Shown one piece after another: positions 4,927 through 64,000 of a stretch of DNA of 64,000 bases. How positions within the stretch are numbered: position 1 is the stretch's first letter; every line of letters starts with the position of its first letter. Under the pieces are notes generated by a model that ran no database searches, had not been told where the DNA came from, and worked only from the letters and a program-made list of their open reading frames with translations. A program made the translations under genes and the position numbers. The stretch is from an uncultured Candidatus Saccharibacteria bacterium (GTDB taxonomy: Bacteria; Patescibacteriota; Minisyncoccia; Phycocordibacterales; JAKAEA01), in the NCBI GenBank assembly GCA_964467325.1, contig CAYXSG010000001.1, forward strand, positions 8,953 through 72,952, given 5' to 3'.

Positions 4927-6027
4927 ATGGTTTTCAGGAGAATTGTCGGCTGGTATGAAAAGTACGAGCGACTCGTGTCGTCCGTTTCGCTCGTGGGCGG
5001 TTTCGTCTTTGACGCGATTTTTCTCAAGCGTGTGGATTTGTTCATTGAAAATTTCTGGATTGTCGTGCATCTTTCCATGGCCGCTGTCGGCATTATTGGG
5101 CTCAATATCGTGGAAAAGCGCCGGACGCAAAGCGCGGAAGGCCAGCAAAGTAAAAGCCGCTGGCATTTCTGGCTCATCATTTGGACGCAGTTTGCCTTCG
5201 GCGGCTTGCTTGCGGCCTTTTTGGTTTTCTATTTTCGCAGCACGACTTTTCTGGTCAACTGGCCATTCATCTTCATTTTGGCTGTAGCTTTTGCCGCCAA
5301 TGAAATTTTCAAGAAGCATTATGTTCGGCTGAGCTTTCAAATCAGCTTGTTTTTTCTTTCGGTTTACGCTTTTGCCATCTTTCTCGTGCCGATTCTCATG
5401 CACCGGATCGGCGCTGACGTGTTCGTTATAAGCGGTGCGGCGAGCCTTTTTGTCCTCGGTTTGTTTTTGGCCGGCTTGCGCTTCATTGCCAGAGAGCGCT
5501 TCGTCCAGAGCCGGAAAATTTTATGGTTTAGCATCGCTGGCATCGTCCTCGTGGTGAACTTTTTATATTTTGCCAACTTGATTCCACCGATTCCGATTTC
5601 GCTCAAAGACGCTGGCATTTATCATTCTGTTTTAAAAAACTCAGCCGGAGGCTACACTGCGACAGAGGAAAATCAAACCTGGCTTGGTATTTTTAAGCAA
5701 TATGAAGACTTTAATGATTTTTCCAACGCGCCGGTTTATGCTTACACCGCAATTTTTTCGCCGACCAATTTCGGCGTCAGCGTCATCCACGATTGGCAAT
5801 ATTATGACGAAACAAAAAAGCAATGGATTTCGGTAAGTAAAATTAGACTGCCGATTGTTGGCGGACGAGACGGCGGCTATCGCACCTACTCCAAAAAGAG
5901 CGGCATTTTTCCTGGTCTTTGGCGTGTGGATGTGAAAACTATAGGCGGCCAGCTCATCGGCCGCTTGAAATTCAACGTCATAGAATCTTCTGCACAGCCT
6001 GCGCTTTCCGAAGTTCGGCTGGAATAG
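4927..6027 (+). CDS. hypothetical polytopic membrane protein with C-terminal extracytoplasmic domain
   Basis: About 6 predicted TM helices followed by a roughly 150-aa soluble domain. Confidence 0.5.
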   Translation: MVFRRIVGWYEKYERLVSSVSLVGGFVFDAIFLKRVDLFIENFWIVVHLSMAAVGIIGLNIVEKRRTQSAEGQQSKSRWHFWLIIWTQFAFGGLLAAFLVFYFRSTTFLVNWPFIFILAVAFAANEIFKKHYVRLSFQISLFFLSVYAFAIFLVPILMHRIGADVFVISGAASLFVLGLFLAGLRFIARERFVQSRKILWFSIAGIVLVVNFLYFANLIPPIPISLKDAGIYHSVLKNSAGGYTATEENQTWLGIFKQYEDFNDFSNAPVYAYTAIFSPTNFGVSVIHDWQYYDETKKQWISVSKIRLPIVGGRDGGYRTYSKKSGIFPGLWRVDVKTIGGQLIGRLKFNVIESSAQPALSEVRLE

Positions 6028-6041
6028 GGTATAATGTTTCC

Positions 6042-7019
6042 ATGATTCAGCCTCAATCTCCAAAGGACAAAGCTTTTATGATTGTCTCGGGAGTGATTGC
6101 TTTTGTAATTATCGGCGGCAGTTTGTATTTTTATTTGTATTCTCAAAAAAAGCAGGACGCGGACAGTGCACTTATCAATTCGCTCAAAGATTCTTTGGAC
6201 GCTTCGTCGCCGCAGCTTCAGCTCCACTCAAGCCTTCTCAAAGCTCAGGCCAATCTCCAAATGCAAACCAATCGCTTGACCGATATGCAAAACGCGCTCA
6301 TTACCCAACAGCAATTTTCTTCGGCAATGAAAAGCGGCTATGACATTGTGGACAGCGCTGTGAAAAAAACTGATGTCATTTCCAAAAAAATCCAAGATGA
6401 AGTGACGACGAAGCGTCAGCAGGTGACTGACGCGCTCAATCTGTGGAAAGATTTGATTGCAAGAACTCCCAAAGATGGCGCCACCGACGAAGTACGTGCT
6501 TTGGCTCAAGCTTATGCTGAAACCGCGCAATCGTATCTGGCCGAACTTCAGGATGTGGTTGATAATCTTACGCCGGAAACTTCTGGTTTGACGCAAAGCC
6601 AGATTGATTCTTACGTAGCGCTGGTGCAAGACGCTTCGCGGTCGGTTGACAGCGTGGTTCAAACTTTGTTGCCGCCCCCGCCGCCAGCAGCACCGCAAAC
6701 CACCGTCGTGGTTGCGGCCGGCAATGATTACGTGCCGCCAGCCCCAATTGTGACGCCGGTGGCGCCGGCGGACGTTGTACACCAGGAGACAGTGGTGGCT
6801 GATGCTCAAAACCAAGTGGAAATTTTGCAGGATCAGATTAATCAAGAGCAACAAGCATCTTCTACCAATCAAAATCCGCCACCACCGCCGGCCGGAAACG
6901 GGCAACAAGACATTTACACCACGCCGTATTCCGACTATTCCACCGCGCAAGGGATTGTCACTCAGCCGGGAGACCCAGAGCTTGTGCCAGGTGCCAACCG
7001 CTACGACAATCCGCAGTAA
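6042..7019 (+). CDS. membrane-anchored coiled-coil / proline-rich protein (hypothetical)
   Basis: Start MIQPQSPKDKAF...; one TM helix; Q-rich coiled coil; PPPPP tracts; TATAAT 8 nt upstream of ATG (leaderless-like). Confidence 0.45.
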   Translation: MIQPQSPKDKAFMIVSGVIAFVIIGGSLYFYLYSQKKQDADSALINSLKDSLDASSPQLQLHSSLLKAQANLQMQTNRLTDMQNALITQQQFSSAMKSGYDIVDSAVKKTDVISKKIQDEVTTKRQQVTDALNLWKDLIARTPKDGATDEVRALAQAYAETAQSYLAELQDVVDNLTPETSGLTQSQIDSYVALVQDASRSVDSVVQTLLPPPPPAAPQTTVVVAAGNDYVPPAPIVTPVAPADVVHQETVVADAQNQVEILQDQINQEQQASSTNQNPPPPPAGNGQQDIYTTPYSDYSTAQGIVTQPGDPELVPGANRYDNPQ

Positions 7020-7477: not shown

Positions 7478-8550
7478 GCGACGACATTTTATTCCTGATA
7501 GGGTTTCTTTTTGTGGTGCTTTTGGCTTTCACTTTTTCCCATAGCGGCACGCCGGCTCAAAACGTCGGCATTCTTGGAAATATTTCAAGCAATCCGAGCG
7601 GCTCGGTTTATACTACTTCACCGGTGAGCGTTTCAAAAAATTCCGCACCGACGATTTCCTATTTTTCTCAAAGCGCTGGTCCGGTTGGGATGAGTACCAC
7701 TGTCTATGGCACTGGTTTTCTCAAGAGTAACACTGTGCATTTTGGCGCGACCAATGTTTTCGCCAGTTCCGACGACGGCACCACGCTCGTTTTCAAAGTT
7801 CCTTCTCTCCCAGTGCAAACTTGCGTCGGCAATTCTCAAAACTGCGTGATTCCGGCGCAAAATACCCAAACCAATTTGGGCACGTATCAAGTTTTTGTTT
7901 CAAATACTAACGGTCAGAGCAATAATTTATCTTTTACCATCGGCGATTATGGAACCAATTACGGCTTAAGTCGGCCGCAGATTACCAATGTAGTTGGGCC
8001 GCAGAAACTTTTGCCGAACGATTCTGGAGTGTGGTCGATCACAGTCAGCGTTTCAAATCCGACGACGCTCATCGTGTCGGCCGATTGGGGCGATGCCAAC
8101 GTTTCCAACAATGGCGGGTCGGGCACAAGGCGAATCAGTATTTCAAAAACTCAGACGATCGCTTTGAGCCACTCTTACCACACACTCGGCAGCTACAACA
8201 TAAATTTTAACGTGATTGATGATGATTCTTCTTTGGCCACTTCTTACACGCAGCCGGTGACTGTCGTTTACGCGCCGCCGGTGGATGTTTCGCAACTTAA
8301 GATTTCTTATTTGTCACAAGGCTACGGTCCGGCCGGCACGCAGATTGCTATAATTGGCGGTGGTTTTTCCGCTTCGCCGGTCACCATTCACTTCGGCAGC
8401 ACGGCTTTGCGCGCCACACCGCAAAATTACGGCACCGCGCTCTATTTCAACGTCCCAGCCAATACGCCGGTCGGCTCATATCAAATTTACGTTTCCAACG
8501 ACCTCGGCCAAATCACCGACACAAATTATTTCTCCGTGACGAACCCTTAG
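7474..8550 (+). CDS. secreted/anchored hypothetical protein (beta-rich, possible IPT/TIG-like repeats)
   Basis: N-terminal TM/signal sequence; S/T/N-rich beta-strand composition. Confidence 0.45.
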   Translation: MSDDILFLIGFLFVVLLAFTFSHSGTPAQNVGILGNISSNPSGSVYTTSPVSVSKNSAPTISYFSQSAGPVGMSTTVYGTGFLKSNTVHFGATNVFASSDDGTTLVFKVPSLPVQTCVGNSQNCVIPAQNTQTNLGTYQVFVSNTNGQSNNLSFTIGDYGTNYGLSRPQITNVVGPQKLLPNDSGVWSITVSVSNPTTLIVSADWGDANVSNNGGSGTRRISISKTQTIALSHSYHTLGSYNINFNVIDDDSSLATSYTQPVTVVYAPPVDVSQLKISYLSQGYGPAGTQIAIIGGGFSASPVTIHFGSTALRATPQNYGTALYFNVPANTPVGSYQIYVSNDLGQITDTNYFSVTNP

Positions 8551-33352: not shown

Positions 33353-34387
33353 ATGAAGAAACTGAAAGTGGCAATCAACGGCGCAGGCAGAATCGGGCGA
33401 GCGTTTTACAAAGTGGCGATGCTGCGTCCTGAGCTTGAAGTGGTGGCGCTCAACGACCTCGGCAGCATCGAAAGTCTTGCTTATCTTTTTAAATATGACA
33501 CAGCGTACGGCCCGAGCGAATTGGACGTTAAAGTGGCGAGCGATAAAAAAAGTCTCACGATCAATGGCAAAACTATCGCTTACGTGAGCGAAAAAGATCC
33601 TGCCAATTTGCCGTGGAAAGAGATGGATATTGATGTGGTGGTGGAATCCACTGGTTTGTTTACTTCGTACGAAAAAGCGCAGGCGCATATCAAAGCGGGT
33701 GCGAAAAAAGTGGTGATTAGCGCGCCGGTTAAAGACGAACCGACGGGCGACATTCGCGGCGGCACCATTTTGATGGGCATCAATGACGACAAGCTTTCCG
33801 TTTGCGACATTTCCTCAAACGCTTCGTGTACGACGAACGCCGGCTCGCCGCTCATGGCGATTTTGCACGAGAAAATCGGCATTGAAAAAGCGTTGCTCAA
33901 CACGGTGCACGCTTACACTGCAAGCCAAGCCATTGTGGACGGTCCTTCAAAAAAAGATTTACGTGAAGGCCGCGCCGCCGCGCAAAATATTGTGCCGAGT
34001 TCCACGGGCGCGGCGATTGCCGTGACTAAAGTTTTGCCCGACCTCGTTGGTAAATTTGACGGCATTTCCATTCGCGTACCGGTCATAGTCGGTTCCATTG
34101 TCGATATCACTTTCATTTCTAAGCGAGCTACTTCTGCCGAGGAAGTGAATTCCATTCTCAAAGCCGCCGCCAAAGAAAAACGCTGGCAAAATATTTTCTC
34201 CGTGACCGAAGAGCCGCTTGTTTCTTCCGACATCATCGGTTCGCGCTTCGCCTCCATTGCTGACCTCGCTTTCACTCGCGTCGCCGACAAAAACCTCGTC
34301 AAAGTTCTGGCGTGGTATGACAACGAGATGGGGTATACGTACACACTTGTTGACCACGTCATTAAAACCGGATTATCAATAAAATAA
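33353..34387 (+). CDS. gap: glyceraldehyde-3-phosphate dehydrogenase (type I)
   Basis: INGAGRIGR NAD-binding; active-site SNASCTTN. Confidence 0.9.
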   Translation: MKKLKVAINGAGRIGRAFYKVAMLRPELEVVALNDLGSIESLAYLFKYDTAYGPSELDVKVASDKKSLTINGKTIAYVSEKDPANLPWKEMDIDVVVESTGLFTSYEKAQAHIKAGAKKVVISAPVKDEPTGDIRGGTILMGINDDKLSVCDISSNASCTTNAGSPLMAILHEKIGIEKALLNTVHAYTASQAIVDGPSKKDLREGRAAAQNIVPSSTGAAIAVTKVLPDLVGKFDGISIRVPVIVGSIVDITFISKRATSAEEVNSILKAAAKEKRWQNIFSVTEEPLVSSDIIGSRFASIADLAFTRVADKNLVKVLAWYDNEMGYTYTLVDHVIKTGLSIK

Positions 34388-34414
34388 ATAAAATTACTAA
34401 ACTAACAAAAATTT

Positions 34415-34720
34415 ATGAATAGATTTTTTTTCATTTCCCTAATCATATTTATGTTGTTGGCTTTTCTTCTTGTCGGAAATACTTATGTAAAAGTTCTACG
34501 CTTTCCCGGTGGTAGTATTTGTAGTGAAGAATCAATGATTATTTGTCTACCCGTTGTTTCCACTCTTATTATATCTCTATTGGTTTCGCTATCCCTTGGT
34601 TTTATTAAAAGATCTAGAAATGTTACCCCTGTAAAACATAACTCCCTAAAATATAACCTATTAATAGTAGTTCTCGTGGTCCTAGCTTTGCAACTATTAT
34701 TTTGGTTGATTATGATATAA
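34415..34720 (+). CDS. small AT-rich membrane protein (hypothetical)
   Basis: 3 TM helices; AT-rich. Confidence 0.35.
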   Translation: MNRFFFISLIIFMLLAFLLVGNTYVKVLRFPGGSICSEESMIICLPVVSTLIISLLVSLSLGFIKRSRNVTPVKHNSLKYNLLIVVLVVLALQLLFWLIMI

Positions 34721-34781
34721 ATGTCTAAAATAAAGGTCAGCACTTTTTAGTTAATTGTTTGGTTTGTGCTAAAATTAGGAG

Positions 34782-35258
34782 GTGAAAATCTACATCGCCT
34801 CTGATCATGCAGGGTTTGAGCTCAAGAAACATTTGATTGGCTATTTTGCCGAGAGCGGCATTATTCTTATAGACAAAGGGCCGTTTGCCTATGTGGCGGG
34901 CGATGATTATCCTGATTGGATTGCTAAGGCGGCAGAAGAGGTGAGTAAAAATCCGAGCGAGGCGCGGGCGATTGTGATTGGACTTTCGGGGGAAGGCGAG
35001 GCACTTGTTGCCAATAAGTTTAAAAATGTGCGCGCTGGCGTTTTTTACACGCCGATTGGAAGCGGCAAGGACGCTTTTGAAATTGTGAAGCTCATGCGCG
35101 AGCACAACGATGCAAATGTGCTCTCGCTTTCCGCAAAATTTTTGAAGAGCGAAGAAGCCGAGCGCGCCACGGATGTTTTTCTGGAAACCGAGTTTAGTGG
35201 CGACGCGCGGCACGAAAGAAGAATTGAGAAAATTACCGATTTAGAACAAGGTCGATAA
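34782..35258 (+). CDS. rpiB: ribose-5-phosphate isomerase B
   Basis: KIYIASDHAGFELKKHL RpiB/LacAB signature; GTG start overlapping AGGAGG. Confidence 0.85.
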   Translation: MKIYIASDHAGFELKKHLIGYFAESGIILIDKGPFAYVAGDDYPDWIAKAAEEVSKNPSEARAIVIGLSGEGEALVANKFKNVRAGVFYTPIGSGKDAFEIVKLMREHNDANVLSLSAKFLKSEEAERATDVFLETEFSGDARHERRIEKITDLEQGR

Positions 35259-35264
35259 ATTTAT

Positions 35265-36074
35265 ATGTTTTCTGAAAAAAGCCTATTTGAAAAAGAGGGT
35301 TTACATTTAGAAAAAGAAAGAGTTTTAACCTACTCAAAACTTTTTTGTCCCCTAGGTTGTAAATACTGTTTTGCCGAAGATTTAGAAGGACGTTCAGGTG
35401 ATAAAGTATCTTATTTATCAGAAGATCAGTTGAATGCCTTAGAAAAAATTCCACCGGAAATTAGCTTGATAATGTTAGGCTGTGATACAGAGTTTTTTCA
35501 ATCAAAAGAAGGTTCATTGGAGATTTTAGAAAGATTATCCCATTCCGATAGAGATATTTCTATTGTAACTAAGATGGATTTAGATTCAGATTTTGTAAAA
35601 TCACTTAAAAATTTTGATGAGGTTTTAAATAAAAATAACAAATCACTTTTTGTTTCTTTTTCTATACCTTGTTTGGATTCTGCAAAAATTTGGGAACCAG
35701 GAGCTCCTGACCCAAACGCAAGAATTGAATCAATGAAAATAGTTCATGATGAAGGTATAAAATCTTTTGTAGCAATAAGACCATTGCTTCCTAGTGTTCC
35801 TGATGATGAATTAGAGAGAATAGTTGATATGACTAAAGGTTATTCGCAAGGTTATTATTCTGGGCCACTATATGTGAAAAATTTAGACCAAGGTTTAGTA
35901 GATACAAATAATCCGGAATTAAAAATTGAATTGGTTCGGCCAGATTGGATGCCTGAAGGTAACGAATTTTATAGAATCCAAAAAGATGGTCAAATGGAAT
36001 TTCTAAGAGACACAATAATTAAAAGCGGAAATATTTTGTTTGAAGGAGCTGCTGATGCCATAGCTCACATTTAA
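35265..36074 (+). CDS. radical SAM domain protein (CX3CX2C), AT-rich, function unknown
   Basis: FCPLGCKYCFA motif at residues 27-36; about 30% GC vs about 50% flanks. Confidence 0.6.
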   Translation: MFSEKSLFEKEGLHLEKERVLTYSKLFCPLGCKYCFAEDLEGRSGDKVSYLSEDQLNALEKIPPEISLIMLGCDTEFFQSKEGSLEILERLSHSDRDISIVTKMDLDSDFVKSLKNFDEVLNKNNKSLFVSFSIPCLDSAKIWEPGAPDPNARIESMKIVHDEGIKSFVAIRPLLPSVPDDELERIVDMTKGYSQGYYSGPLYVKNLDQGLVDTNNPELKIELVRPDWMPEGNEFYRIQKDGQMEFLRDTIIKSGNILFEGAADAIAHI

Positions 36075-36084
36075 GGTAAATAAA

Positions 36085-36600
36085 ATGAAAAACATAGAGT
36101 TAAAAGTCAAAGCACCGAATCTATCAAAAATTAAACCTGTTTTGAAAAAAATTGGTGCAAAATACGTTGAAACTCTTAAACAGGTTGATACCTACTATAA
36201 ATGCAATGAGGGTAGGTTAAAAACAAGGGAAATAAACAATAATAATTTTGAATTGATTTTTTATAGAAGAGAAAACAAAAAAGAATCAAAAATATCTGAT
36301 TATGAGATTCTTAAAATGAGCTATCCTCATAGACAGAAATATAAAAATATTTTAAATGAAATATTTGGGAAGGTCGTTGTGGTTAAAAAAGAGCGGTTGC
36401 TTTGGATTTACAAAAATACAAGAATTCATCTTGATTGCGTAGAAGATTTAGGAAATTTTTTAGAATTGGAAACCATAGTAAGTGATACTTTAAGCAAAGC
36501 CAAAAAAGAATATAAGGAAATTACAGATTATTTAAATATTAGCAATTTTAAAAAAATCGCCAGTTCATACAGCGATTTATTAATCTTAGCAAAACCATGA
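36085..36600 (+). CDS. CYTH/triphosphate-tunnel-metalloenzyme domain protein (CyaB/thiamine-triphosphatase-like), AT-rich
   Basis: IELKVKAPN...QVDTYY...RLKTRE...ELIFYRRE...LELETIV pattern of the CYTH fold; stop overlaps rpe start (ATGA). Confidence 0.55.
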   Translation: MKNIELKVKAPNLSKIKPVLKKIGAKYVETLKQVDTYYKCNEGRLKTREINNNNFELIFYRRENKKESKISDYEILKMSYPHRQKYKNILNEIFGKVVVVKKERLLWIYKNTRIHLDCVEDLGNFLELETIVSDTLSKAKKEYKEITDYLNISNFKKIASSYSDLLILAKP

Positions 36601-37299: not shown

Positions 37300-38166
37300 G
37301 TGAGTTTGACTGATTTTGAAATTAAAAGTTTGGAGAAAAAAGCCAACGAGATTCGCGTTTCAATAATTGAAATGCTTTTGGAAGCCGGCTCAGGCCACAC
37401 CGCGGGACCTTTGGGCATGGCGGACATTTTCACCGCGCTCTATTTTCACATTTTAAAACACGACGCAACTAATCCTTCTTGGAACGAGCGCGACCGACTC
37501 GTGCTTTCCAATGGCCACATTTGTCCGGTTTTGTACGCCGCGATGGCGCACGCCGGTTATTTTCCAATTAAAGAACTGAAAACTTTGCGCAAATTTGGCT
37601 CGCGCTTGCAAGGCCATCCGCATCGCGATTTTCTGCCGATGTTGGAAACGAGCTCTGGGCCACTTGGCTCCGGCCTTTCGCAAGCGGTTGGCTTGGCGCT
37701 TGCCGATAAAATTGACGACTACAAGCCGGCCGGCCGATTTATTTATTGTTTAATGAGCGACGGCGAGCTCGACGAAGGTCAAAGCTGGGAAGCGGCGCTT
37801 TTGGCGGGAAAAAACAAATTACACAATTTGATTGCGATTATTGACCGCAACAATATTCAGATTGACGGCTTCACCGAAGATGTGATGCCGCTTGAGCCGC
37901 TGCGCGCAAAGTGGGAAGCGTTCGGCTGGCACGTTTTGGAAATTGACGGACACAATTTCAATGAGATTGCTGGCGCGGTAGAGCAAGCGAAAGCGATTTT
38001 TGAAAAGCCGTCCATGATTATTGCGCATACCATTCCTGGCAAAGGCGTGAAAGAATTTGAACGCAAATACGAATGGCACGGCAAACCGCCAAACGCCGCC
38101 GAAGCCGCGATGGCGCTCAAAGAGCTCCGCACTTTAGGCGGCAAAATTAAAAGCGAGCATGAGTAA
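37300..38166 (+). CDS. tktA: transketolase, N-terminal (TPP-binding) subunit
   Basis: GSGHTAGPLGMADIF...SNGH...DGELDEGQSWEA transketolase N-terminal motifs; GTG start. Confidence 0.85.
   Translation: MSLTDFEIKSLEKKANEIRVSIIEMLLEAGSGHTAGPLGMADIFTALYFHILKHDATNPSWNERDRLVLSNGHICPVLYAAMAHAGYFPIKELKTLRKFGSRLQGHPHRDFLPMLETSSGPLGSGLSQAVGLALADKIDDYKPAGRFIYCLMSDGELDEGQSWEAALLAGKNKLHNLIAIIDRNNIQIDGFTEDVMPLEPLRAKWEAFGWHVLEIDGHNFNEIAGAVEQAKAIFEKPSMIIAHTIPGKGVKEFERKYEWHGKPPNAAEAAMALKELRTLGGKIKSEHE
38144..38162 (+). repeat. 19-bp direct repeat, copy 1 (3' end of tktN)
   Basis: aaattaaaagcgagcatga identical to 38804..38822. Confidence 0.7.
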
Positions 38167-38215
38167 CTGTGAATAGATCTTTATAAAGATTTTATCACTG
38201 GTTTGCTAAGCTGGT

Positions 38216-38740
38216 GTGATGAAGGATTATATAAAAGGGCGAGCGGGAGTTTTCATTGATGCTGCCAATATTTTGTATTCACAACAAACTCTTGGCTGGA
38301 AAGTTGATTATAAAAAACTCAAAGACTATTTAATAAACCAATCATTTTCTGCGGTTTTTTATTATTACACTGGAAAAGTTGGTTCACTTGAAAACCAACT
38401 GAAATTTATTAATAAGCTTGAGAATTATGGGTACGTTGTGATAGCAAAAGAAGTTAAGTTCATTAGAACAAAAGATGGCAAACAAATTCCCAAAGGTAAT
38501 CTTGATATTGAGCTTGCGCTAGACGCTTTTAGATTTAAAGATACGTACGATACGTTGCTTCTTTTTTCCGGTGATTCTGATTTCGCTTATCTTCTGGATC
38601 TTTTGAAGGAATACGGTAAGAAAACTTTGGTTTTTTCAACCAGAGGACACATTTCAAAAGAATTGCTAGAAAGAGCAAAGTATATTGATCTTCAAAAACT
38701 AAGAAGCTTTATTGAGCTAAAATTCAAAGAGCCACGCTAG
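38216..38740 (+). CDS. NYN domain (PIN-like) putative ribonuclease, AT-rich insertion
   Basis: VFIDAANILY...GNLDIELALDA...LFSGDSDFAYLLDLLKEYGKKTLVF match the NYN/LabA fold. Confidence 0.7.
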   Translation: MMKDYIKGRAGVFIDAANILYSQQTLGWKVDYKKLKDYLINQSFSAVFYYYTGKVGSLENQLKFINKLENYGYVVIAKEVKFIRTKDGKQIPKGNLDIELALDAFRFKDTYDTLLLFSGDSDFAYLLDLLKEYGKKTLVFSTRGHISKELLERAKYIDLQKLRSFIELKFKEPR

Positions 38741-38803
38741 GTGGCTCTTGAAGTATGACTTAATTAGTATAGCTGGTGTATAATATAAGTCAAGAGTTTT
38801 TGG

Positions 38804-38822
38804 AAATTAAAAGCGAGCATGA
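38804..38822 (+). repeat. 19-bp direct repeat, copy 2
   Basis: aaattaaaagcgagcatga duplicate of the tktN 3' end, 3' of the NYN gene. Confidence 0.7.
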
Positions 38823-38844
38823 ATAATTAATAAATTTAAATAAT

Positions 38845-39174
38845 ATGAATGAAAATAAAAAATGGTATCTTTCAAAAGGAGTTTTGTTCTTTGTTGGGTA
38901 TGTAGTTATAACAATAATATACGGATTTGTAACAGTGAATCAGGAACTAATTAATTCCTTACCATTATCACTTTTAACATTTCCTATGGGTATTTTAGGT
39001 GGTTTTTTGATTTTTGGTTGGCCAGCCATAATTATAACTGCAATAACTGCTCTTTTTATGGAAAGGTTTGTTTCTAAAAACCAAAAATTACCTATTTATA
39101 TTTTTTCATACCTAGTAGCGTTGCCTTTTATTTTCTGTTTCATTTATTATTTGTCGATTCATAATATTCGTTAA
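38845..39174 (+). CDS. small AT-rich membrane protein (hypothetical)
   Basis: 3 TM helices; TAATG overlap with tktC start. Confidence 0.4.
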   Translation: MNENKKWYLSKGVLFFVGYVVITIIYGFVTVNQELINSLPLSLLTFPMGILGGFLIFGWPAIIITAITALFMERFVSKNQKLPIYIFSYLVALPFIFCFIYYLSIHNIR

Positions 39175-40178
39175 TGCTAAATCCTCTTCTAAAACTCAAT
39201 CCTAAAATTTTTGACGAAAGTGTGGAGCAGACGCCGATTCGGCGCGGGTTTGGCGAGGGATTTTTGGCGGCGGGCGAAGCAGATAAAAATGTGGTGGGAC
39301 TGTGCGCCGATTTGACCGAGAGCACCCAGATGCATCTTTTCAAAGAAAAATTTCCGGAGCGGTTTATTGAGGTGGGCGTTGCTGAGCAAAATCTCGCGAG
39401 CGTGGCTTCCGGCTTGGTGGCGGCTGGAAAAATTCCTTTTATTTCTTCTTATGCCATGTTTTCTCCGGGCCGAAATTGGGAGCAGATTCGCACGACCATT
39501 TGCTACAACGACCGGCCGGTGAAAATTGCCGGCTCGCACGCGGGGATTTCCGTGGGACCGGACGGCGGCACGCACCAAGCGCTGGAAGATATCGCGCTTA
39601 CCAGAGTAATTCCGAGAATGGTGGTGATTTCGCCATGCGACGCGGTGGAAGCGCTCAAAGCCACTTTAGCAGCAGCGAAAACCAAAACGCCGGTTTACAT
39701 CCGACTCGCACGCGAAAAAACGCCGATTATGACTTCGGCGCACACGCCTTTTGAAATTGGCAAAGCGGAAATTTTTTTCCAGCCGATTGCCGGCCGTGCT
39801 GAAGTGGGGATTGTGGCGACCGGTGCACTGCTCTACAAAGCGCTGAAAGTGGCGCGCGATTTGGAAAAAGAAAAAATTGGCGTGACGGTTCTAAATCTCT
39901 CAACCATTAAACCTTTAGACGAAAAAGCGTTGCTTCGTCTTGCGGAAGACACGAAGGCAATAGTGACGGTGGAAGAGCATCAAATTGCTGGCGGCATGGG
40001 CTCAGCGGTGGCTGAGTTTCTCGCCAAGCACCGGCCAGTACTGATGGAATTTATTGGCGTGCACGACAAATTTGGCCAATCAGGCAAGCCGGAAGAACTC
40101 ATAGAATTTTACGGCATGGGAGAAAAAGCCATCAAAGAAGCGGTGAAAAAGGTTTTGAAGAGAAAATTACAGAAATAA
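39174..40178 (+). CDS. tktB: transketolase, C-terminal (pyrimidine-binding) subunit
   Basis: RRGFGEGFLAAGEADKNVVGLCADL...ISPCDAVE...HQIAGGMGS transketolase C-terminal motifs. Confidence 0.85.
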   Translation: MLNPLLKLNPKIFDESVEQTPIRRGFGEGFLAAGEADKNVVGLCADLTESTQMHLFKEKFPERFIEVGVAEQNLASVASGLVAAGKIPFISSYAMFSPGRNWEQIRTTICYNDRPVKIAGSHAGISVGPDGGTHQALEDIALTRVIPRMVVISPCDAVEALKATLAAAKTKTPVYIRLAREKTPIMTSAHTPFEIGKAEIFFQPIAGRAEVGIVATGALLYKALKVARDLEKEKIGVTVLNLSTIKPLDEKALLRLAEDTKAIVTVEEHQIAGGMGSAVAEFLAKHRPVLMEFIGVHDKFGQSGKPEELIEFYGMGEKAIKEAVKKVLKRKLQK

Positions 40179-40181
40179 TTT

Positions 40182-40406
40182 ATGAATGAAATTAAAATCG
40201 GCGCGCTTTATAAGCATTACAAAACAGAAAAGCTTTATAAGATTATAGGCATTGCTAAGCATTCGGAAACACTAGAGGATTTGGTAATTTACGAAGCGCA
40301 GTATGAAAATCCCACTTCAAAACTTTGGGCGAGACCGCTTTCAATGTTTCTGGAATCTGTTGAATTCAAAGGCAAAAAACAACCTCGGTTCAATTTGATC
40401 GACTAG
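40182..40406 (+). CDS. DUF1653 domain protein
   Basis: YKHYKTEKLYKIIGIAKHSETLEDLVIYEAQY...WARP matches DUF1653. Confidence 0.6.
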   Translation: MNEIKIGALYKHYKTEKLYKIIGIAKHSETLEDLVIYEAQYENPTSKLWARPLSMFLESVEFKGKKQPRFNLID

Positions 40407-60785: not shown

Positions 60786-61427
60786 ATGGCATTTTTAGAC
60801 ATCGTTTGGAAATACAAATATTTGCTGGCTTTTTACACGGTGGTGATTTCCTTTGGTTCTTTTACCGCACTTTACCTTGTTGGCTTGGTACCGAGCGAGC
60901 TAAAAATGGCAGACGCACCGGCCTACACCATGCTGGCCGCGCCGGCCGAGGTTTTGCCAGTAAATAATAAAGCATCAAAAACTGTAATTGGTCAATTGCC
61001 AAAACGCGTGATAATTTCTAAAATCGGCGTAGATTCTTATGTCAGTAATCCAACTTCGACTGACACGTCTATTTTGAACGAAGCTCTTTTATCGGGCGCA
61101 GTTCGCTATCCCGGCTCCGGCACGCTTGGCCACGGCAATATGTTTCTCTTCGGCCACAGCACCGGCATTCGCATCGTCAACAATCAAGCATACAAGGCGT
61201 TCAATCATCTCAATCAGATGGCGCTTGGCGACACGATTAGCGTGCAATCGTCAGACACGGAATACACCTATTCGGTCACTTCCGTGGCTTTGATTGATAG
61301 CGATGAAAAGCTAGTGGATTTTTCAAAAAATAAAGACATGCTGACGCTTTCTACCTGTGATGTCTTCGGCGAAAAGCAGGAGCGGTATGTCGTTGAAGCC
61401 AAGTTTATAAGTTCTAGAAAACTATAA
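60786..61427 (+). CDS. srt: sortase family transpeptidase
   Basis: N-terminal TM; catalytic His (LFGHSTG), TLSTC (TLxTC) Cys motif, conserved Arg (RYVVEAKF). Confidence 0.75.
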   Translation: MAFLDIVWKYKYLLAFYTVVISFGSFTALYLVGLVPSELKMADAPAYTMLAAPAEVLPVNNKASKTVIGQLPKRVIISKIGVDSYVSNPTSTDTSILNEALLSGAVRYPGSGTLGHGNMFLFGHSTGIRIVNNQAYKAFNHLNQMALGDTISVQSSDTEYTYSVTSVALIDSDEKLVDFSKNKDMLTLSTCDVFGEKQERYVVEAKFISSRKL

Positions 61428-61431
61428 AACC

Positions 61432-64000
61432 ATGACTAAAGTAAAAATATTTTTCATTTTCTTGACGATGATCGTGATTTCCAGCGCTTGGTTTGGCGCT
61501 TCTTTTGTGAACGCTTCGGGCAATGGCACGCTCACAGTTTGTCTCATGTTCACTGATCACGACAACGACATCGTTCACAGTTTCAATAATTCCAATGTGC
61601 CGAATACCAGTTTTAATGTGCCGATTACGGTTCATAACTCCGACGGCACGGTTAAAGTCATTAAAAATGTTTCGGTCAGCACGGCAGATTTTACGCCGAA
61701 CACACGGATTGTTGGCTTGTCGAACGATGCGCAATGCACCACTTACACTTTGCCGATTAGCGATTATTATTACCGCCGCGAAACAATTTCTGGCACGGGT
61801 GCGGACAAATGGGCGCTCGCTACTTACAACGACGAATACAACAGCCGAGTAAAAACCCTAAATGATTTCTACGATTTGGGTACGACCGATGTTGCTGACC
61901 ACACCATTGTGCTTCATGACGATCGGCCGGACCGCCGGCTGGTGGTGCTCAACCGGTTTAACGATTCTTTTGAAATCATTCCGCCACTTACGGCATCTTG
62001 CAGCGCATTGCCCGCCACAGTTTTTCCAAGCAATCCAGTTACTTGGAAAGCTAATGCTGCCGGCGGTGTTGGTGTGTATACATATTCTTGGATTGGCGCT
62101 TTTAGTTCCACTGCTTCCACAACGGTGACTTCTTTTAGCACAACAGGAGTCAAAAATGCCACGGTTAAAGTTACTTCCGGCACGATGACGGCAACGGCCA
62201 ATTGTAATGTTTCCGTGGTCGCTAGACCGGTTTCAACTGGTACTTTGGTTCTAGACAAAACTGTCTTCAATTCTCACGGCGGTACCAAACAACCATCAGA
62301 CTTTTCTTTCTTCATCGGCAACATCCAAGTACCCCTCGGCCAAGCCAACACTTTAACTCCAGGCACTTACACGGTTCATGAAAATAATTTGCCGGGCTAT
62401 GTTGCTGACGGTTGGACAGGTGATTGCACGGCTGATGGTCACGTGACCATTGCGGCTGGCGATGCAAAACACTGCTCGATTATTAACCGAGACGTGGCGC
62501 CGACCGTGACCACGGGCACGGTGACGCTTACGAAATTTGTAATTAATGACAATGGCGGTACCAAACAGCCTTCCGATTTCAGACTTTATGTTGGCACCAC
62601 TTCGGTAACGAGTGGCGTTTCCACAACGTTCTCTGCGGGCACTTACTCGGTTCACGAAGACAATCTATCCGGCTACACGGCTGGCACTTGGATGGGCGAT
62701 TGTACTACAGACGGTCATGTCACAATTGTTGCGGGCCAAAATAAAAATTGTTCAATAACTAACAACGACATTCGTCAAAATCCTCCGCCTCCGCCACCAC
62801 TATCCACCGGCACTCTCACTCTAGACAAAACTGTCTTCAATTCTCACGGCGGTACCAAACAACCATCAGACTTTTCTTTCTTCATCGGCAACATCCAAGT
62901 ACCCCTCGGCCAAGCCAACACTTTAACTCCAGGCACTTACACGGTTCATGAAAATAATTTGCCGGGCTATGTTGCTGACGGTTGGACAGGCGACTGTGCG
63001 GCTGATGGTCACGTGACCATTGCGGCTGGCGATGCGAAACATTGTTCGATTATTAACCGAGATGTGGAGCAAATTCTGCCACCGCCACCAACACCGCCAT
63101 TTTCCATTTCCTGCGCGGTGTTGAACAACCCAACATCGGTTGACCAAAATACTGTTGTGGCTTGGCAGGTTACGTTTGCTTTCCCAACTAGCAATTCCGA
63201 GGCGTATGTCTACAATGCCACGTATGATTGGTCTGGCACGGACGGTCTGACTGGTACAAATCAAACCGTTACCAAATTATATTCCACCCCAGGCACAAAA
63301 AATGCCAGTGTTATAGTTACGTCGCACAATTCTTCCGGCACGGGATACTACACCACTAGCGCCAGCTGTTCCATTCCGGTTAATCCTCCGCCACCACTGC
63401 CGCTTGGCTGCATCGCCATTCATAAAAGTGCTCTTGATTCCAATGGCGTTGCAATTACGCCAGTGCCAACTTTCGGTTTCAAAGTGGACAATGGCGCGGA
63501 ACTTTTCAACGATAACTCTGGCTTGGCCACCGTCTCTGGCTTAAGTGTCGGCACTCACACTGTGACTGAAACTACGAAAGACGGTTGGACCAATACCAAC
63601 ACTACGCCAACCAACGGCTCGGTCTCGGTAGTTGCAGGCAATCAGTGCGCAGATGTTACTTTTGAAAATAAACAAAATGCGCCGGCTGTGGTTCCGGATA
63701 TAATTGCTTCGTGTTCAGCCAATCCTTCCACTGCCAACATCGGCGACACAGTTACGTATTCGGCGAGTGCTTCCGGTGGCAATGGTTCATTCACCTACGC
63801 TTGGAGCGGCGATGAAAATTTGTCCGGTTCAAATAGTTCGGCCAGCGCCTCCTACACAACTGCCGGCACGAAAAGTGCTACCGTGATTGTGTCTTCAGGC
63901 GGCAAAACGGCCACGGCCAATTGTTCTGCTTCAATTGTTGAAGCCACGCCAACCTTAAATGGTTCATGTGCAGCCAATCCATCGGCAGTTAACACGGGCG
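61432..64000 (+). CDS. very large repetitive secreted surface protein (PKD-like and prealbumin/Cna-B-like repeats), 5' partial, runs off the window
   Basis: Uninterrupted frame from ATG 61432 to the window end (over 855 codons); signal peptide; repeated domains with poly-Pro linkers; immediately downstream of the sortase. Confidence 0.7.
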   Translation, partial: MTKVKIFFIFLTMIVISSAWFGASFVNASGNGTLTVCLMFTDHDNDIVHSFNNSNVPNTSFNVPITVHNSDGTVKVIKNVSVSTADFTPNTRIVGLSNDAQCTTYTLPISDYYYRRETISGTGADKWALATYNDEYNSRVKTLNDFYDLGTTDVADHTIVLHDDRPDRRLVVLNRFNDSFEIIPPLTASCSALPATVFPSNPVTWKANAAGGVGVYTYSWIGAFSSTASTTVTSFSTTGVKNATVKVTSGTMTATANCNVSVVARPVSTGTLVLDKTVFNSHGGTKQPSDFSFFIGNIQVPLGQANTLTPGTYTVHENNLPGYVADGWTGDCTADGHVTIAAGDAKHCSIINRDVAPTVTTGTVTLTKFVINDNGGTKQPSDFRLYVGTTSVTSGVSTTFSAGTYSVHEDNLSGYTAGTWMGDCTTDGHVTIVAGQNKNCSITNNDIRQNPPPPPPLSTGTLTLDKTVFNSHGGTKQPSDFSFFIGNIQVPLGQANTLTPGTYTVHENNLPGYVADGWTGDCAADGHVTIAAGDAKHCSIINRDVEQILPPPPTPPFSISCAVLNNPTSVDQNTVVAWQVTFAFPTSNSEAYVYNATYDWSGTDGLTGTNQTVTKLYSTPGTKNASVIVTSHNSSGTGYYTTSASCSIPVNPPPPLPLGCIAIHKSALDSNGVAITPVPTFGFKVDNGAELFNDNSGLATVSGLSVGTHTVTETTKDGWTNTNTTPTNGSVSVVAGNQCADVTFENKQNAPAVVPDIIASCSANPSTANIGDTVTYSASASGGNGSFTYAWSGDENLSGSNSSASASYTTAGTKSATVIVSSGGKTATANCSASIVEATPTLNGSCAANPSAVNTG
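62251..62497 (+). repeat. intragenic direct repeat, copy 1 (170 bp perfect, about 247 bp at roughly 95%)
   Basis: 62251-62420 identical to 62821-62990. Confidence 0.8.
62821..63067 (+). repeat. intragenic direct repeat, copy 2
   Basis: 570-bp period, encodes a duplicated Cna-B-like domain. Confidence 0.8.

Follow-up and report, generated by a model that had tools for sequence, protein, structure and literature searches.

A 637-nt unit (positions 38167–38803) separates the two halves of the transketolase gene in the window, the whole 64-kb stretch of DNA analysed here, and is probably a horizontally acquired, self-contained mobile cassette. It pairs a NYN-domain nuclease gene with a predicted antisense RNA gene in an arrangement resembling a type I toxin–antitoxin system, and would have been brought in by one-sided recombination. 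The same two-part cassette, with a similar scar, lies beside many different genes in other CPR bacteria.

The gene for the N-terminal transketolase half, tktN (37300–38166, forward strand; Pfam Transketolase_N, E = 1e-66), and that for the C-terminal half, tktC (39174–40178, forward strand; Pfam Transket_pyr and Transketolase_C), belong to an rpiB–rpe–tktN–tktC operon that is kept in 80 related loci. As the preliminary description of this DNA had supposed for split transketolase genes, the two halves are usually adjacent: among 75 loci, the distance between them is at most 150 nt in 44 and at most 60 nt in 42, and the spacer in the closest syntenic relative (L094, tktN 83% identical) is 3 nt. 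In the window, the interval holds the NYN gene (38219–38740, forward strand, encoding 173 amino acids from an ATG, or 174 from a GTG at 38216; GC 0.33), followed by a 109-amino-acid open reading frame (ORF) with three hydrophobic segments (38845–39174, forward strand), the stop codon of which overlaps the tktC start (TAATG). All four ORFs lie where the preliminary description placed them, and Pfam agrees for tktN, NYN and tktC.

None of the 74 other Paceibacteria loci has an NYN gene at this site, and only contigs of the same species (L001, L089 and L093) have the arrangement. Because tktN and tktC are mostly adjacent in relatives and NYN at this site is confined to the one species, the sequence comparison identifies the NYN unit as an insertion, as had been proposed. 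The GC content of the insert is 0.31, against 0.50 in the tkt genes; the block of about 30% GC noticed previously corresponds to values of 0.26–0.35 over 38200–39200, compared with 0.46–0.58 in the tkt genes. An ancestral arrangement with host-like GC, which had been named as the observation that would speak against insertion, is thus not what the relatives display. The search for an empty site gave a partial answer, in that L094 has its 3-nt gap, but a precise empty site lacking just the NYN unit (the tktN tail, then TAATTAATAAATTT, the membrane ORF and tktC) was not found; the tktN look-ups retrieved the same species only. The unit begins with a 52-nt left spacer (38167–38218, forward strand) holding an AT-rich imperfect palindrome directly after the tktN stop codon (38169–38198). 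The fold of this palindrome is not statistically notable (z-score −1.09) and it is not conserved; among the cassettes, no motif upstream of the NYN genes is conserved except an ATGA start context.

The unit is bracketed by a direct repeat of the tktN 3′ end. The 19-mer AAATTAAAAGCGAGCATGA, which encodes the tktN C terminus KSEHE plus stop as first described, has two exact copies in the 64-kb window, at 38144–38162 and 38804–38822, and no third; the chance expectation is 0.05 matches in the window with three mismatches allowed, and the sequence is not a common motif within these 64 kb. The repeat can be extended to 23 nt, of which 22 are identical. Copy 1 (38144–38166, forward strand) forms the last 23 nt of the functional tktN, whereas copy 2 (38804–38826, forward strand) is a displaced relic of the tktN 3′ end that reads GAA TAA rather than GAG TAA; both read ..IKSEHE-stop in frame, and the relic is also kept in a second strain (L089). 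No other gene-end repeat of this kind occurs in the 64 kb, and the exact 19-mer is present in none of 75 orthologous tktN tails. The repeats had been described as exactly bracketing the NYN gene; they do enclose it, but they also enclose a non-coding element at its 3′ end, and they leave the membrane ORF outside. Two shorter matches, the 9-mer AGCTGGTGT that flanks NYN on both sides and the 11-mer TTTTGGAAATT common to tktN at 37934, were set aside as near chance expectation. Taken alone, this locus would look the same after a local duplication as after recombination with a very close donor, the copies differing at one synonymous base.

Similar scars recur across the NYN family. Direct repeats of 16–130 nt, spaced 620–790 nt apart, bracket 20 of 68 dereplicated NYN homologues, or 29% compared with 7% of 301 control ORFs (roughly fourfold; Fisher's P = 2e-6, odds ratio 5.6), and about 70% of NYN loci have no detectable flanking repeat. 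The repeat-positive controls are themselves toxins, namely AbiEii, MazF, a PIN-type toxin–antitoxin pair and a divergent NYN. The repeats correspond to parts of unrelated host genes, in each case the 5′ or 3′ end; these genes include rpiB, pilin-like genes, a PD-(D/E)XK gene and genes for a TPR protein and a PPDK_N protein. The other repeat-bounded NYN units that were assessed have unique lengths of about 580–690 nt, with room for one ORF. In L172, L137 and part of L117, the repeats reach beyond the host gene ends and take in cassette-internal sequence from tandem cassettes. A GAATAATATGA repeat around a DUF1653 gene (L016 and L028) was not counted, as it is a common stop/start junction motif. 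Mismatches between repeat copies fall on codon positions 1, 2 and 3 in 19, 8 and 53 cases, respectively (P = 1e-9), and 20 of the 22 in L165 are synonymous. This third-position bias fits one-sided homologous recombination that brings together a donor and a recipient gene end, one copy coming from the donor, and it speaks against the footprint of a transposase.

These data bear on an alternative in which a recombinase or transposase acting in trans placed the 637-bp element into the tktN tail, the repeat being an att core or a target-site duplication. Such an origin would agree with the 19 nt of exact identity between the repeats and their precise position at the two edges of the unit, and with the recurrence of the same tktN tail in an unrelated genome (L079), where it is repeated at 27/28 identity around other cargo. 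However, the unit contains neither a recombinase gene nor terminal inverted repeats, and the duplications across the family vary in sequence and length and involve unrelated target genes; an integrative element would bring an integrase and a constant core, and an insertion sequence or transposon a transposase, terminal inverted repeats and a duplication of fixed length. Nor would single-template duplication followed by neutral decay predict that differences between copies cluster at synonymous sites, or that similarity stops at, or a few bases from, the host start or stop codon, as it does in the window and in L006, L042, L120 and L135. We therefore consider this route unlikely, and the att-like duplication by a dedicated recombinase suggested at first does not hold up; the other option offered with it, recombination using the gene end, is the best fit among those early readings.

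The second part of the cassette, absent from the preliminary description, is a candidate antisense RNA gene convergent with NYN (38713–38798, reverse strand). It comprises a −35 box (TTGACT, 38793–38788), a 16-nt spacer, a −10 box (TATACT, 38771–38766), a hairpin whose loop contains the NYN stop codon (38749–38727, −15.8 kcal/mol, z = −3.68) and, completing the terminator, a U-rich tail (38726–38717), all on the reverse strand. The promoter faces inward with the terminator about 10 nt after it, and each was picked up by an independent scan of the window. Across the family, NYN 3′ ends share the consensus TTGACA-N16-TATACT followed by a covarying hairpin and a U-run that overlap the NYN stop codon. 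The −35 and −10 boxes are invariant, the spacer between them is variable, and all nine hairpin pairs have compensatory changes. A strict promoter pattern is found at 43 of 69 NYN loci compared with 0.7% of background windows (P = 1e-69), and the element is present at nearly every NYN gene in L095–L174. A covariance model (R1) scores 59.7 bits at the window element; applied to 839 kb of sequence, most of it non-NYN, it has 14 matches, every one of them at the 3′ end of an NYN gene and on the strand opposite to that gene. No Rfam family matches the element. As predicted from these features, it should produce a cis-antisense RNA of about 40–45 nt that is fully complementary to the NYN mRNA at its 3′ end. 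The conserved partner of NYN thus appears to be a small convergent antisense RNA gene and not a protein.

The protein itself is a clear member of the NYN (PIN-like) family. It matches PF01936 at 92.7 bits (cut-off 24.2, E = 3.9e-26), covering 143 of 145 profile positions, and structure 2qip at E = 1.8e-8. Six acidic residues (D14, D96, E98, D102, D119 and D121), invariant in 26 homologues, align to the IDxxN, DxxxxxD and SGDxDF motifs of 2qip. An exact-sequence look-up returned no match, whereas 850 homologues of about 175–180 amino acids were found, mostly in Patescibacteria. Viral contigs yielded only distant relatives (29–32% identical) and the PHROGs match is weak, leaving a phage vector unsupported. 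We know of no established nuclease role for the LabA-like NYN proteins, which form a very large family. In domain, size class and acidic active-site motifs, the cassette protein resembles these proteins (NYN.COG1432, PF01936; 2qip), and it differs from published members in that these have no described link to antisense RNA, mobility or toxin–antitoxin behaviour; a 2017 classification of the PIN superfamily lists NYN.COG1432 as of unknown function, its nuclease activity not having been studied experimentally (PMC5499597). Nor did the library of papers searched contain any description in which NYN is a mobile, homing or type I toxin–antitoxin gene.

This family background raises the possibility, in our judgement a slim one, that NYN is simply an RNase with a housekeeping or regulatory task in CPR bacteria and lies at this site by chance; the repeat would then be an incidental by-product of rearrangement, and the 3′ element would be a terminator and a promoter without particular significance. 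Members of the family are found widely and are strongly conserved (57–72% identity across CPR lineages), as one would also expect of a beneficial housekeeping or defence RNase that has merely been moved around, and regulatory roles are known for LabA-like NYN proteins in other settings (PMC5499597). Against this, the genomic position of NYN is not conserved, its GC content is below that of its flanks in 51 of 57 loci, and it forms tandem multi-copy arrays in L137 and L172. The excess of gene-end scars over control ORFs also speaks against an incidental origin, as does the covarying inward promoter and terminator, a conserved element exclusive to the NYN gene.

We also considered whether NYN could act on DNA. 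Some free-standing homing endonuclease genes in phages and fungal mitochondria carry a replacement end for their target gene. By analogy, NYN might be an endonuclease that cuts cassette-free alleles, repair then copying in the cassette together with a replacement gene end. As in such elements, a gene for a nuclease whose active site is intact sits between conserved genes or at their ends, and the duplicated, partly foreign gene ends would match the traces these elements leave. Yet NYN proteins that are 45–72% identical lie at entirely different target genes rather than a single conserved one, and NYN is not a known homing fold. Scars of the same kind flank AbiEii, MazF and PIN toxin cassettes, non-nuclease toxins among them, and hence do not depend on NYN chemistry, and homing genes are not known to have a dedicated antisense RNA. 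NYN domains are, moreover, predicted RNases, and the nuclease activity of NYN.COG1432 lacks experimental study (PMC5499597). Homing of this type seems to us improbable, and we give equally little weight to an autonomous selfish element with relaxed targeting, in which the cassette would be more than a passenger of host recombination: the nuclease would itself trigger, in a homing-like way, the events by which the cassette is copied into gene ends, and the antisense RNA would throttle it.

The 109-amino-acid ORF downstream does have the three hydrophobic stretches predicted for it earlier, by Kyte–Doolittle analysis, and it has no Pfam, PADLOC or PHROG match. A search of 5.8 billion proteins found one homologue, 98% identical, which belongs to the same species. 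Because the tktN-tail relic sits between them, NYN and this ORF are best read as separate insertions, the latter a species-restricted, low-GC one that is not part of the NYN unit. The earlier proposal of a two-gene abortive-infection or toxin–antitoxin module, prompted by two adjacent, co-oriented, low-GC ORFs, is therefore very hard to sustain, as the membrane ORF lies outside the repeats, has no homologue beyond the species and would not fit into the other repeat-bounded NYN units, whose length accommodates one gene and whose neighbours are unrelated and differ.

With a nuclease and an antisense RNA element as its only conserved parts, the cassette can be compared with known systems. In several type I toxin–antitoxin systems (txpA/RatA and bsrG/SR4 of B. 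subtilis and par of E. faecalis), the antitoxin RNA overlaps the 3′ end of the toxin mRNA or has a convergent terminator in common with it, and SymE/SymR is a type I system with a larger, nuclease-like toxin. The cassette is predicted to share with type I systems a protein gene accompanied by a short, constitutively promoted cis-antisense RNA with an intrinsic terminator and mRNA overlap, and it has a similarly patchy, multi-copy, horizontally mobile distribution. It departs from them in that NYN is a soluble 173-amino-acid enzyme, atypical as a type I toxin, rather than a small hydrophobic, membrane-damaging peptide of fewer than 60 amino acids, and in the very short predicted RNA. A type II system would have a conserved adjacent antitoxin gene, whereas each NYN unit holds one ORF and the neighbours vary. 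The orientation of NYN relative to these neighbours is no different from the background. The suggested check for a defence system returned a match to the NYN domain (PADLOC PDLC01154 ‘NYN’, E = 2e-15, profile positions 150–289 of 310) but no partner genes or system context. We infer that the antisense RNA is expressed and restrains the nuclease, either as a type I-like antitoxin or by simple antisense repression, and that NYN would be toxic; a selfish, toxin–antitoxin-like character is plausible, with the module behaving as a selfish or defence-type accessory gene.

Lacking a recombinase of its own, the cassette probably arrived on DNA of a close relative in which it already lay beside tktN. 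This DNA would have undergone homologous recombination within tktN, its 3′ end serving as anchor, on one side and illegitimate joining on the other. This could have happened by homology-facilitated illegitimate recombination or through one crossover with a circular molecule bearing the gene end, and the recombination route has precedents (PMC5361080 and PMC3240628). In either case, the imported tktN tail would have taken over as the functional end of the gene (copy 1), and the tail already present would have been pushed downstream as the 23-nt relic (copy 2). C-terminal displacement and orphan arrays at Rhs, CDI and T6SS effector loci have been attributed to homology-facilitated illegitimate recombination (PMC5361080). 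As proposed here, a conserved gene segment anchors incoming DNA at those loci, the resident end is displaced downstream as a relic, and serial events generate relic arrays (here in L079 and L137). There, however, the anchor belongs to the toxin, whereas here it is an intact, unrelated housekeeping gene, the relics are only 16–130 nt long and the cargo is a free-standing nuclease with a predicted small RNA. The NYN units also recall integron cassettes, being small, mostly single-gene, promoter-poor and sometimes arrayed, with a conserved structured 3′ element. In contrast to attC, though, this element reads as an opposite-strand sigma-70 promoter and a terminator, no integrase or attI was seen at NYN loci, and the junctions are duplicated host gene ends rather than a GTT core.

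To our knowledge, almost no small RNAs or toxin–antitoxin biology have been characterised in CPR bacteria (Patescibacteria). If the proposed reading is correct, it would give the LabA-like NYN family a testable function, that of a nuclease restrained by a dedicated antisense RNA, and the RNA would be perhaps the first conserved small RNA family defined in CPR bacteria. The pair would be a candidate for a type I-like system in which the toxin is an enzyme. Furthermore, accessory genes would be able to enter the streamlined operons of these bacteria without breaking them, through recombination that uses the end of a conserved neighbour as its anchor and leaves short relics, and such gene-end relics would serve as simple markers of recent gene transfer in metagenome-assembled genomes.

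Between tktN (37300–38166, Transketolase_N) and tktC (39174–40178), the window carries a gene for a 173/174-aa NYN-domain protein (38216/38219–38740; PF01936, E 4e-26) and a 109-aa hydrophobic ORF (38845–39174), and GC content falls from roughly 0.5 in the tkt genes to 0.26–0.35 in the DNA between them. The 19-mer AAATTAAAAGCGAGCATGA is present in two exact copies, one at the tktN 3′ end (38144–38162) and one beyond the NYN gene (38804–38822), compared with a chance expectation from shuffles of 0.05 matches at up to three mismatches. Once the stop codon is included, the match covers 22 of 23 bases (GAG TAA against GAA TAA), and each copy encodes ..IKSEHE-stop. We denote the displaced copy (38804–38826, plus strand) the relic and the segment preceding it (38167–38803) the NYN unit. 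The repeat, ORFs and protein families thus agree with the preliminary description. The 19-mer is not a common intergenic motif: in a scan of the whole 64-kb window, it proved to be the only repeat of its type.

A TktN scan at one genome per species yielded 80 Patescibacteria loci, mostly from Paceibacteria, that share the rpiB–rpe–tktN–tktC operon. The gap between tktN and tktC is ≤60 nt in 42 of the 75 loci having both halves, and none of the 74 foreign loci has an NYN gene between them; the NYN arrangement, with its relic copy intact, is limited to contigs of the window's own species (L001, L089 and L093). At L094, the closest relative on a long contig (TktN 83% identical), synteny extends through DUF1653, PfkB and FBA, the tktN–tktC spacer is 3 nt and there is a single tktN tail. 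The mostly adjacent halves in relatives, the absence of NYN from foreign loci and the low GC make it almost certain that the arrangement is an insertion, as first proposed. No exact empty site lacking just the NYN unit was found among the relatives examined.

The junction between tktN and tktC is a hot spot for insertions. In 31 of 75 Paceibacteria loci, the window's contig included, 200–3900 nt of lower-GC DNA lies between the two genes, carrying small, mostly operon-oriented ORFs whose identity varies by locus in almost every lineage (for example, L026, L031, L010 and L079). In the Niyogibacteria locus L079, relics of the gene end used in the window form an array: the tktN tail (5854–5881) is repeated with 27/28 identity at 7521–7548, beyond two inserted ORFs, and a partial copy follows the first of these (about 6538–6557). 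The tail repeats of the two loci indicate that the tktN 3′ end has been used as a junction at least twice independently. The three tail copies in L079 separate two Pfam-less ORFs and a 706-aa PG_binding protein, with no NYN gene. The window's pentose-phosphate operon contains further low-GC islands (35265–36600, 40182–40406 and 34300–34800), around which no gene-end repeats were seen in the window. A radical-SAM and CYTH gene pair splits rpiB and rpe, usually adjacent in relatives, and a DUF1653 gene follows tktC in the window and lies between tktN and tktC in L016 and L028. At 62226–63070 and 63871–63932, a 275-nt segment recurs at a spacing of 570 nt (93% identity), and more copies, of 47–62 nt, lie nearby; these are probably repeated domains of a large coding region.

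The NYN protein has 850 homologues at E ≤0.001, about 175–180 aa long and at best 72% identical; those with named hosts are nearly all from Patescibacteria (CPR). We collected roughly 100 NYN loci and aligned, for each gene, 350 nt upstream against 350 nt downstream. Direct repeats of 16–130 nt (80–98% identity, 620–790-nt spacing) bracket 20 of 68 non-redundant NYN genes, versus 7% of 301 size-matched ORFs from the same loci (Fisher p 2e-6). In sequence, the repeats are gene ends, 5′ or 3′, and the host genes concerned are unrelated: the rpiB start (L006 and L042), a TPR protein gene (L083), the 3′ end of a PPDK_N protein gene (L165), pilin-like genes (L135 and L137) and a PD-(D/E)XK gene (L117 and L120). 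The repeat-positive control ORFs are themselves selfish-type genes: an AbiEii toxin gene bordered by 40 nt identical to the rpiB start (L069:1218–1889), a MazF toxin gene (L112:952–1398, 57-nt repeat), a DUF433/DUF5615 pair (L083:3694–4374, 165-nt direct repeats) and a divergent NYN (L162). Other toxin-type cassettes (AbiEii, MazF and DUF433/DUF5615) bear the same scar. At 51 of 57 loci, GC is lower in the NYN gene than in the DNA flanking it. NYN genes also form tandem arrays: L137:1550–3624 has three in a row, separated by copies of a 47–67-nt gene-tail motif, and L172:900–3740 has two along with two unassigned ORFs, the antisense-element model R1 (below) matching five times between them. 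These data show that the NYN gene is a cassette that moves among CPR genomes and has settled time and again at gene ends, where relics accompany it. In L006 (3261–3320) and L042 (3237–3295), the displaced 5′ fragment of rpiB that precedes NYN is still an open mini-ORF. Its stop shares bases with the NYN start (GTGA or ATGA), a hint that NYN is translationally coupled to the relic; the start context seen most often in the family is TATGAT.

Mismatches between the copies of a repeat fall at host codon positions 1, 2 and 3 in the numbers 19, 8 and 53 (p 1e-9), a bias that stays significant once the largest case is set aside; at L165, synonymous changes account for 20 of the 22 differences. At several loci, one edge of the similarity lies no more than a base or two from the host start or stop codon. 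Because of this third-position bias and these edges, the copies look like orthologous gene ends of two lineages, one resident and the other apparently brought in with the cassette. Recombination that was homologous on the conserved-neighbour side and illegitimate on the other would leave two such gene-end copies; this process, homology-facilitated illegitimate recombination, is the one proposed to account for the displaced ends of T6SS and Rhs arrays (PMC5361080), whose C-terminal displacement the NYN scar resembles. A circular fragment that bears the gene end would yield them just as well if it entered by one crossover, and single crossovers have been shown to duplicate 109–950 bp of a partial homologous fragment (PMC3240628). 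We favour the exact route only a little beyond even odds. For the window taken alone, the two-lineage reading is thinner than for the family: its copies differ by one synonymous base and the exact 19-mer is absent from all 75 orthologous tktN tails (best 21–22/23), which leaves either a very closely related donor or a duplication made locally. A target-site duplication should leave a non-functional copy to decay at random, and the mismatches are not random. An att site or transposase footprint is disfavoured by the variable repeat length, the diverse targets and the fact that the 637-nt NYN unit has neither a recombinase nor terminal inverted repeats. Of the origin first proposed for the repeat, recombination at the gene end is thus retained and the att or target-site-duplication reading is not.

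The partner of NYN is a conserved element of around 85 nt that follows almost all NYN ORFs. Its sequence on the strand opposite to NYN is TTGACA-N16/17-TATACT followed, about 10 nt on, by a hairpin and U-run, the hairpin overlapping the NYN stop codon and C-terminal codons. The strict promoter pattern occurs at 43 of 69 NYN loci versus 0.7% of 11,194 background windows. In a 30-sequence alignment, both hexamers are invariant whereas the spacer is not, and compensatory changes affect nine of nine hairpin pairs. R1, a covariance model built from this alignment, gave 14 matches in 839 kb of mostly non-NYN loci, all 14 at NYN 3′ ends on the opposite strand and including loci outside the training set; it also matches almost every NYN locus of the metagenome set. 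No Rfam family matches the element. We regard the conserved antisense element as very probably real, and its simplest reading is a putative cis-antisense RNA of about 40–45 nt convergent with NYN.

In the window, R1 matches 38713–38798 (59.7 bits). An independent consensus scan found the minus-strand promoter (TTGACT-16-TATACT, 38793 to 38766, 10/12), whose score is the joint best in the region, and the terminator hairpin (38749 to 38727, tail TGAATTTTAG), which folds at −15.8 kcal/mol (z −3.68). The tied site, on the plus strand (38755–38784, ATGACT-18-TATAAT, 10/12), overlaps the antisense promoter region, faces the relic and membrane ORF and could drive the downstream genes. The family's conserved NYN C terminus (..P....EV-stop) is encoded by the antisense hairpin and leader, with ..EV-stop in the 5′ region of the predicted sRNA; in the window (38729–38762), a TAG in the hairpin loop stops NYN five codons early (KEPR-stop, then in-frame VALEV-stop). 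A weak R1 match on the minus strand at 60897–61000 (19.6 bits, E 0.026), within a 213-aa ORF (60786–61427) and with no NYN gene nearby, is probably due to chance.

The cassette thus comprises one nuclease gene and, dedicated to it, a conserved promoter and terminator in antisense orientation. The preliminary description had instead paired NYN with the membrane protein, wrongly: the relic separates the two, no homologue of the 109-aa ORF was found beyond this species, and the neighbours of other cassettes are unrelated. The membrane ORF seems to have entered this hot spot separately, and before the NYN unit. The selfish, toxin–antitoxin-like nature suggested earlier is supported as a plausible reading. 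The NYN domain is a clear member of PF01936/NYN.COG1432, a group whose function is given as unknown (PMC5499597), and its PIN-like active site is intact; among the papers searched, none described NYN genes as mobile, as homing genes or as controlled by an RNA antitoxin. The sRNA would pair with the 3′ end of the NYN mRNA, limiting its stability or translation, and the nuclease may be harmful if unchecked, although we hold its toxicity only tentatively, at somewhat under even odds. The architecture would work like that of type I toxin–antitoxin systems with 3′ overlap, but NYN is not the small peptide usual for that class. We consider a mobile NYN nuclease–antisense RNA cassette the reasonably probable combined explanation, one in which nuclease and sRNA may jointly serve addiction or defence in the manner of a type I system. 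What is chiefly new here is this NYN–antisense RNA cassette, together with the gene-end scars found across its family.
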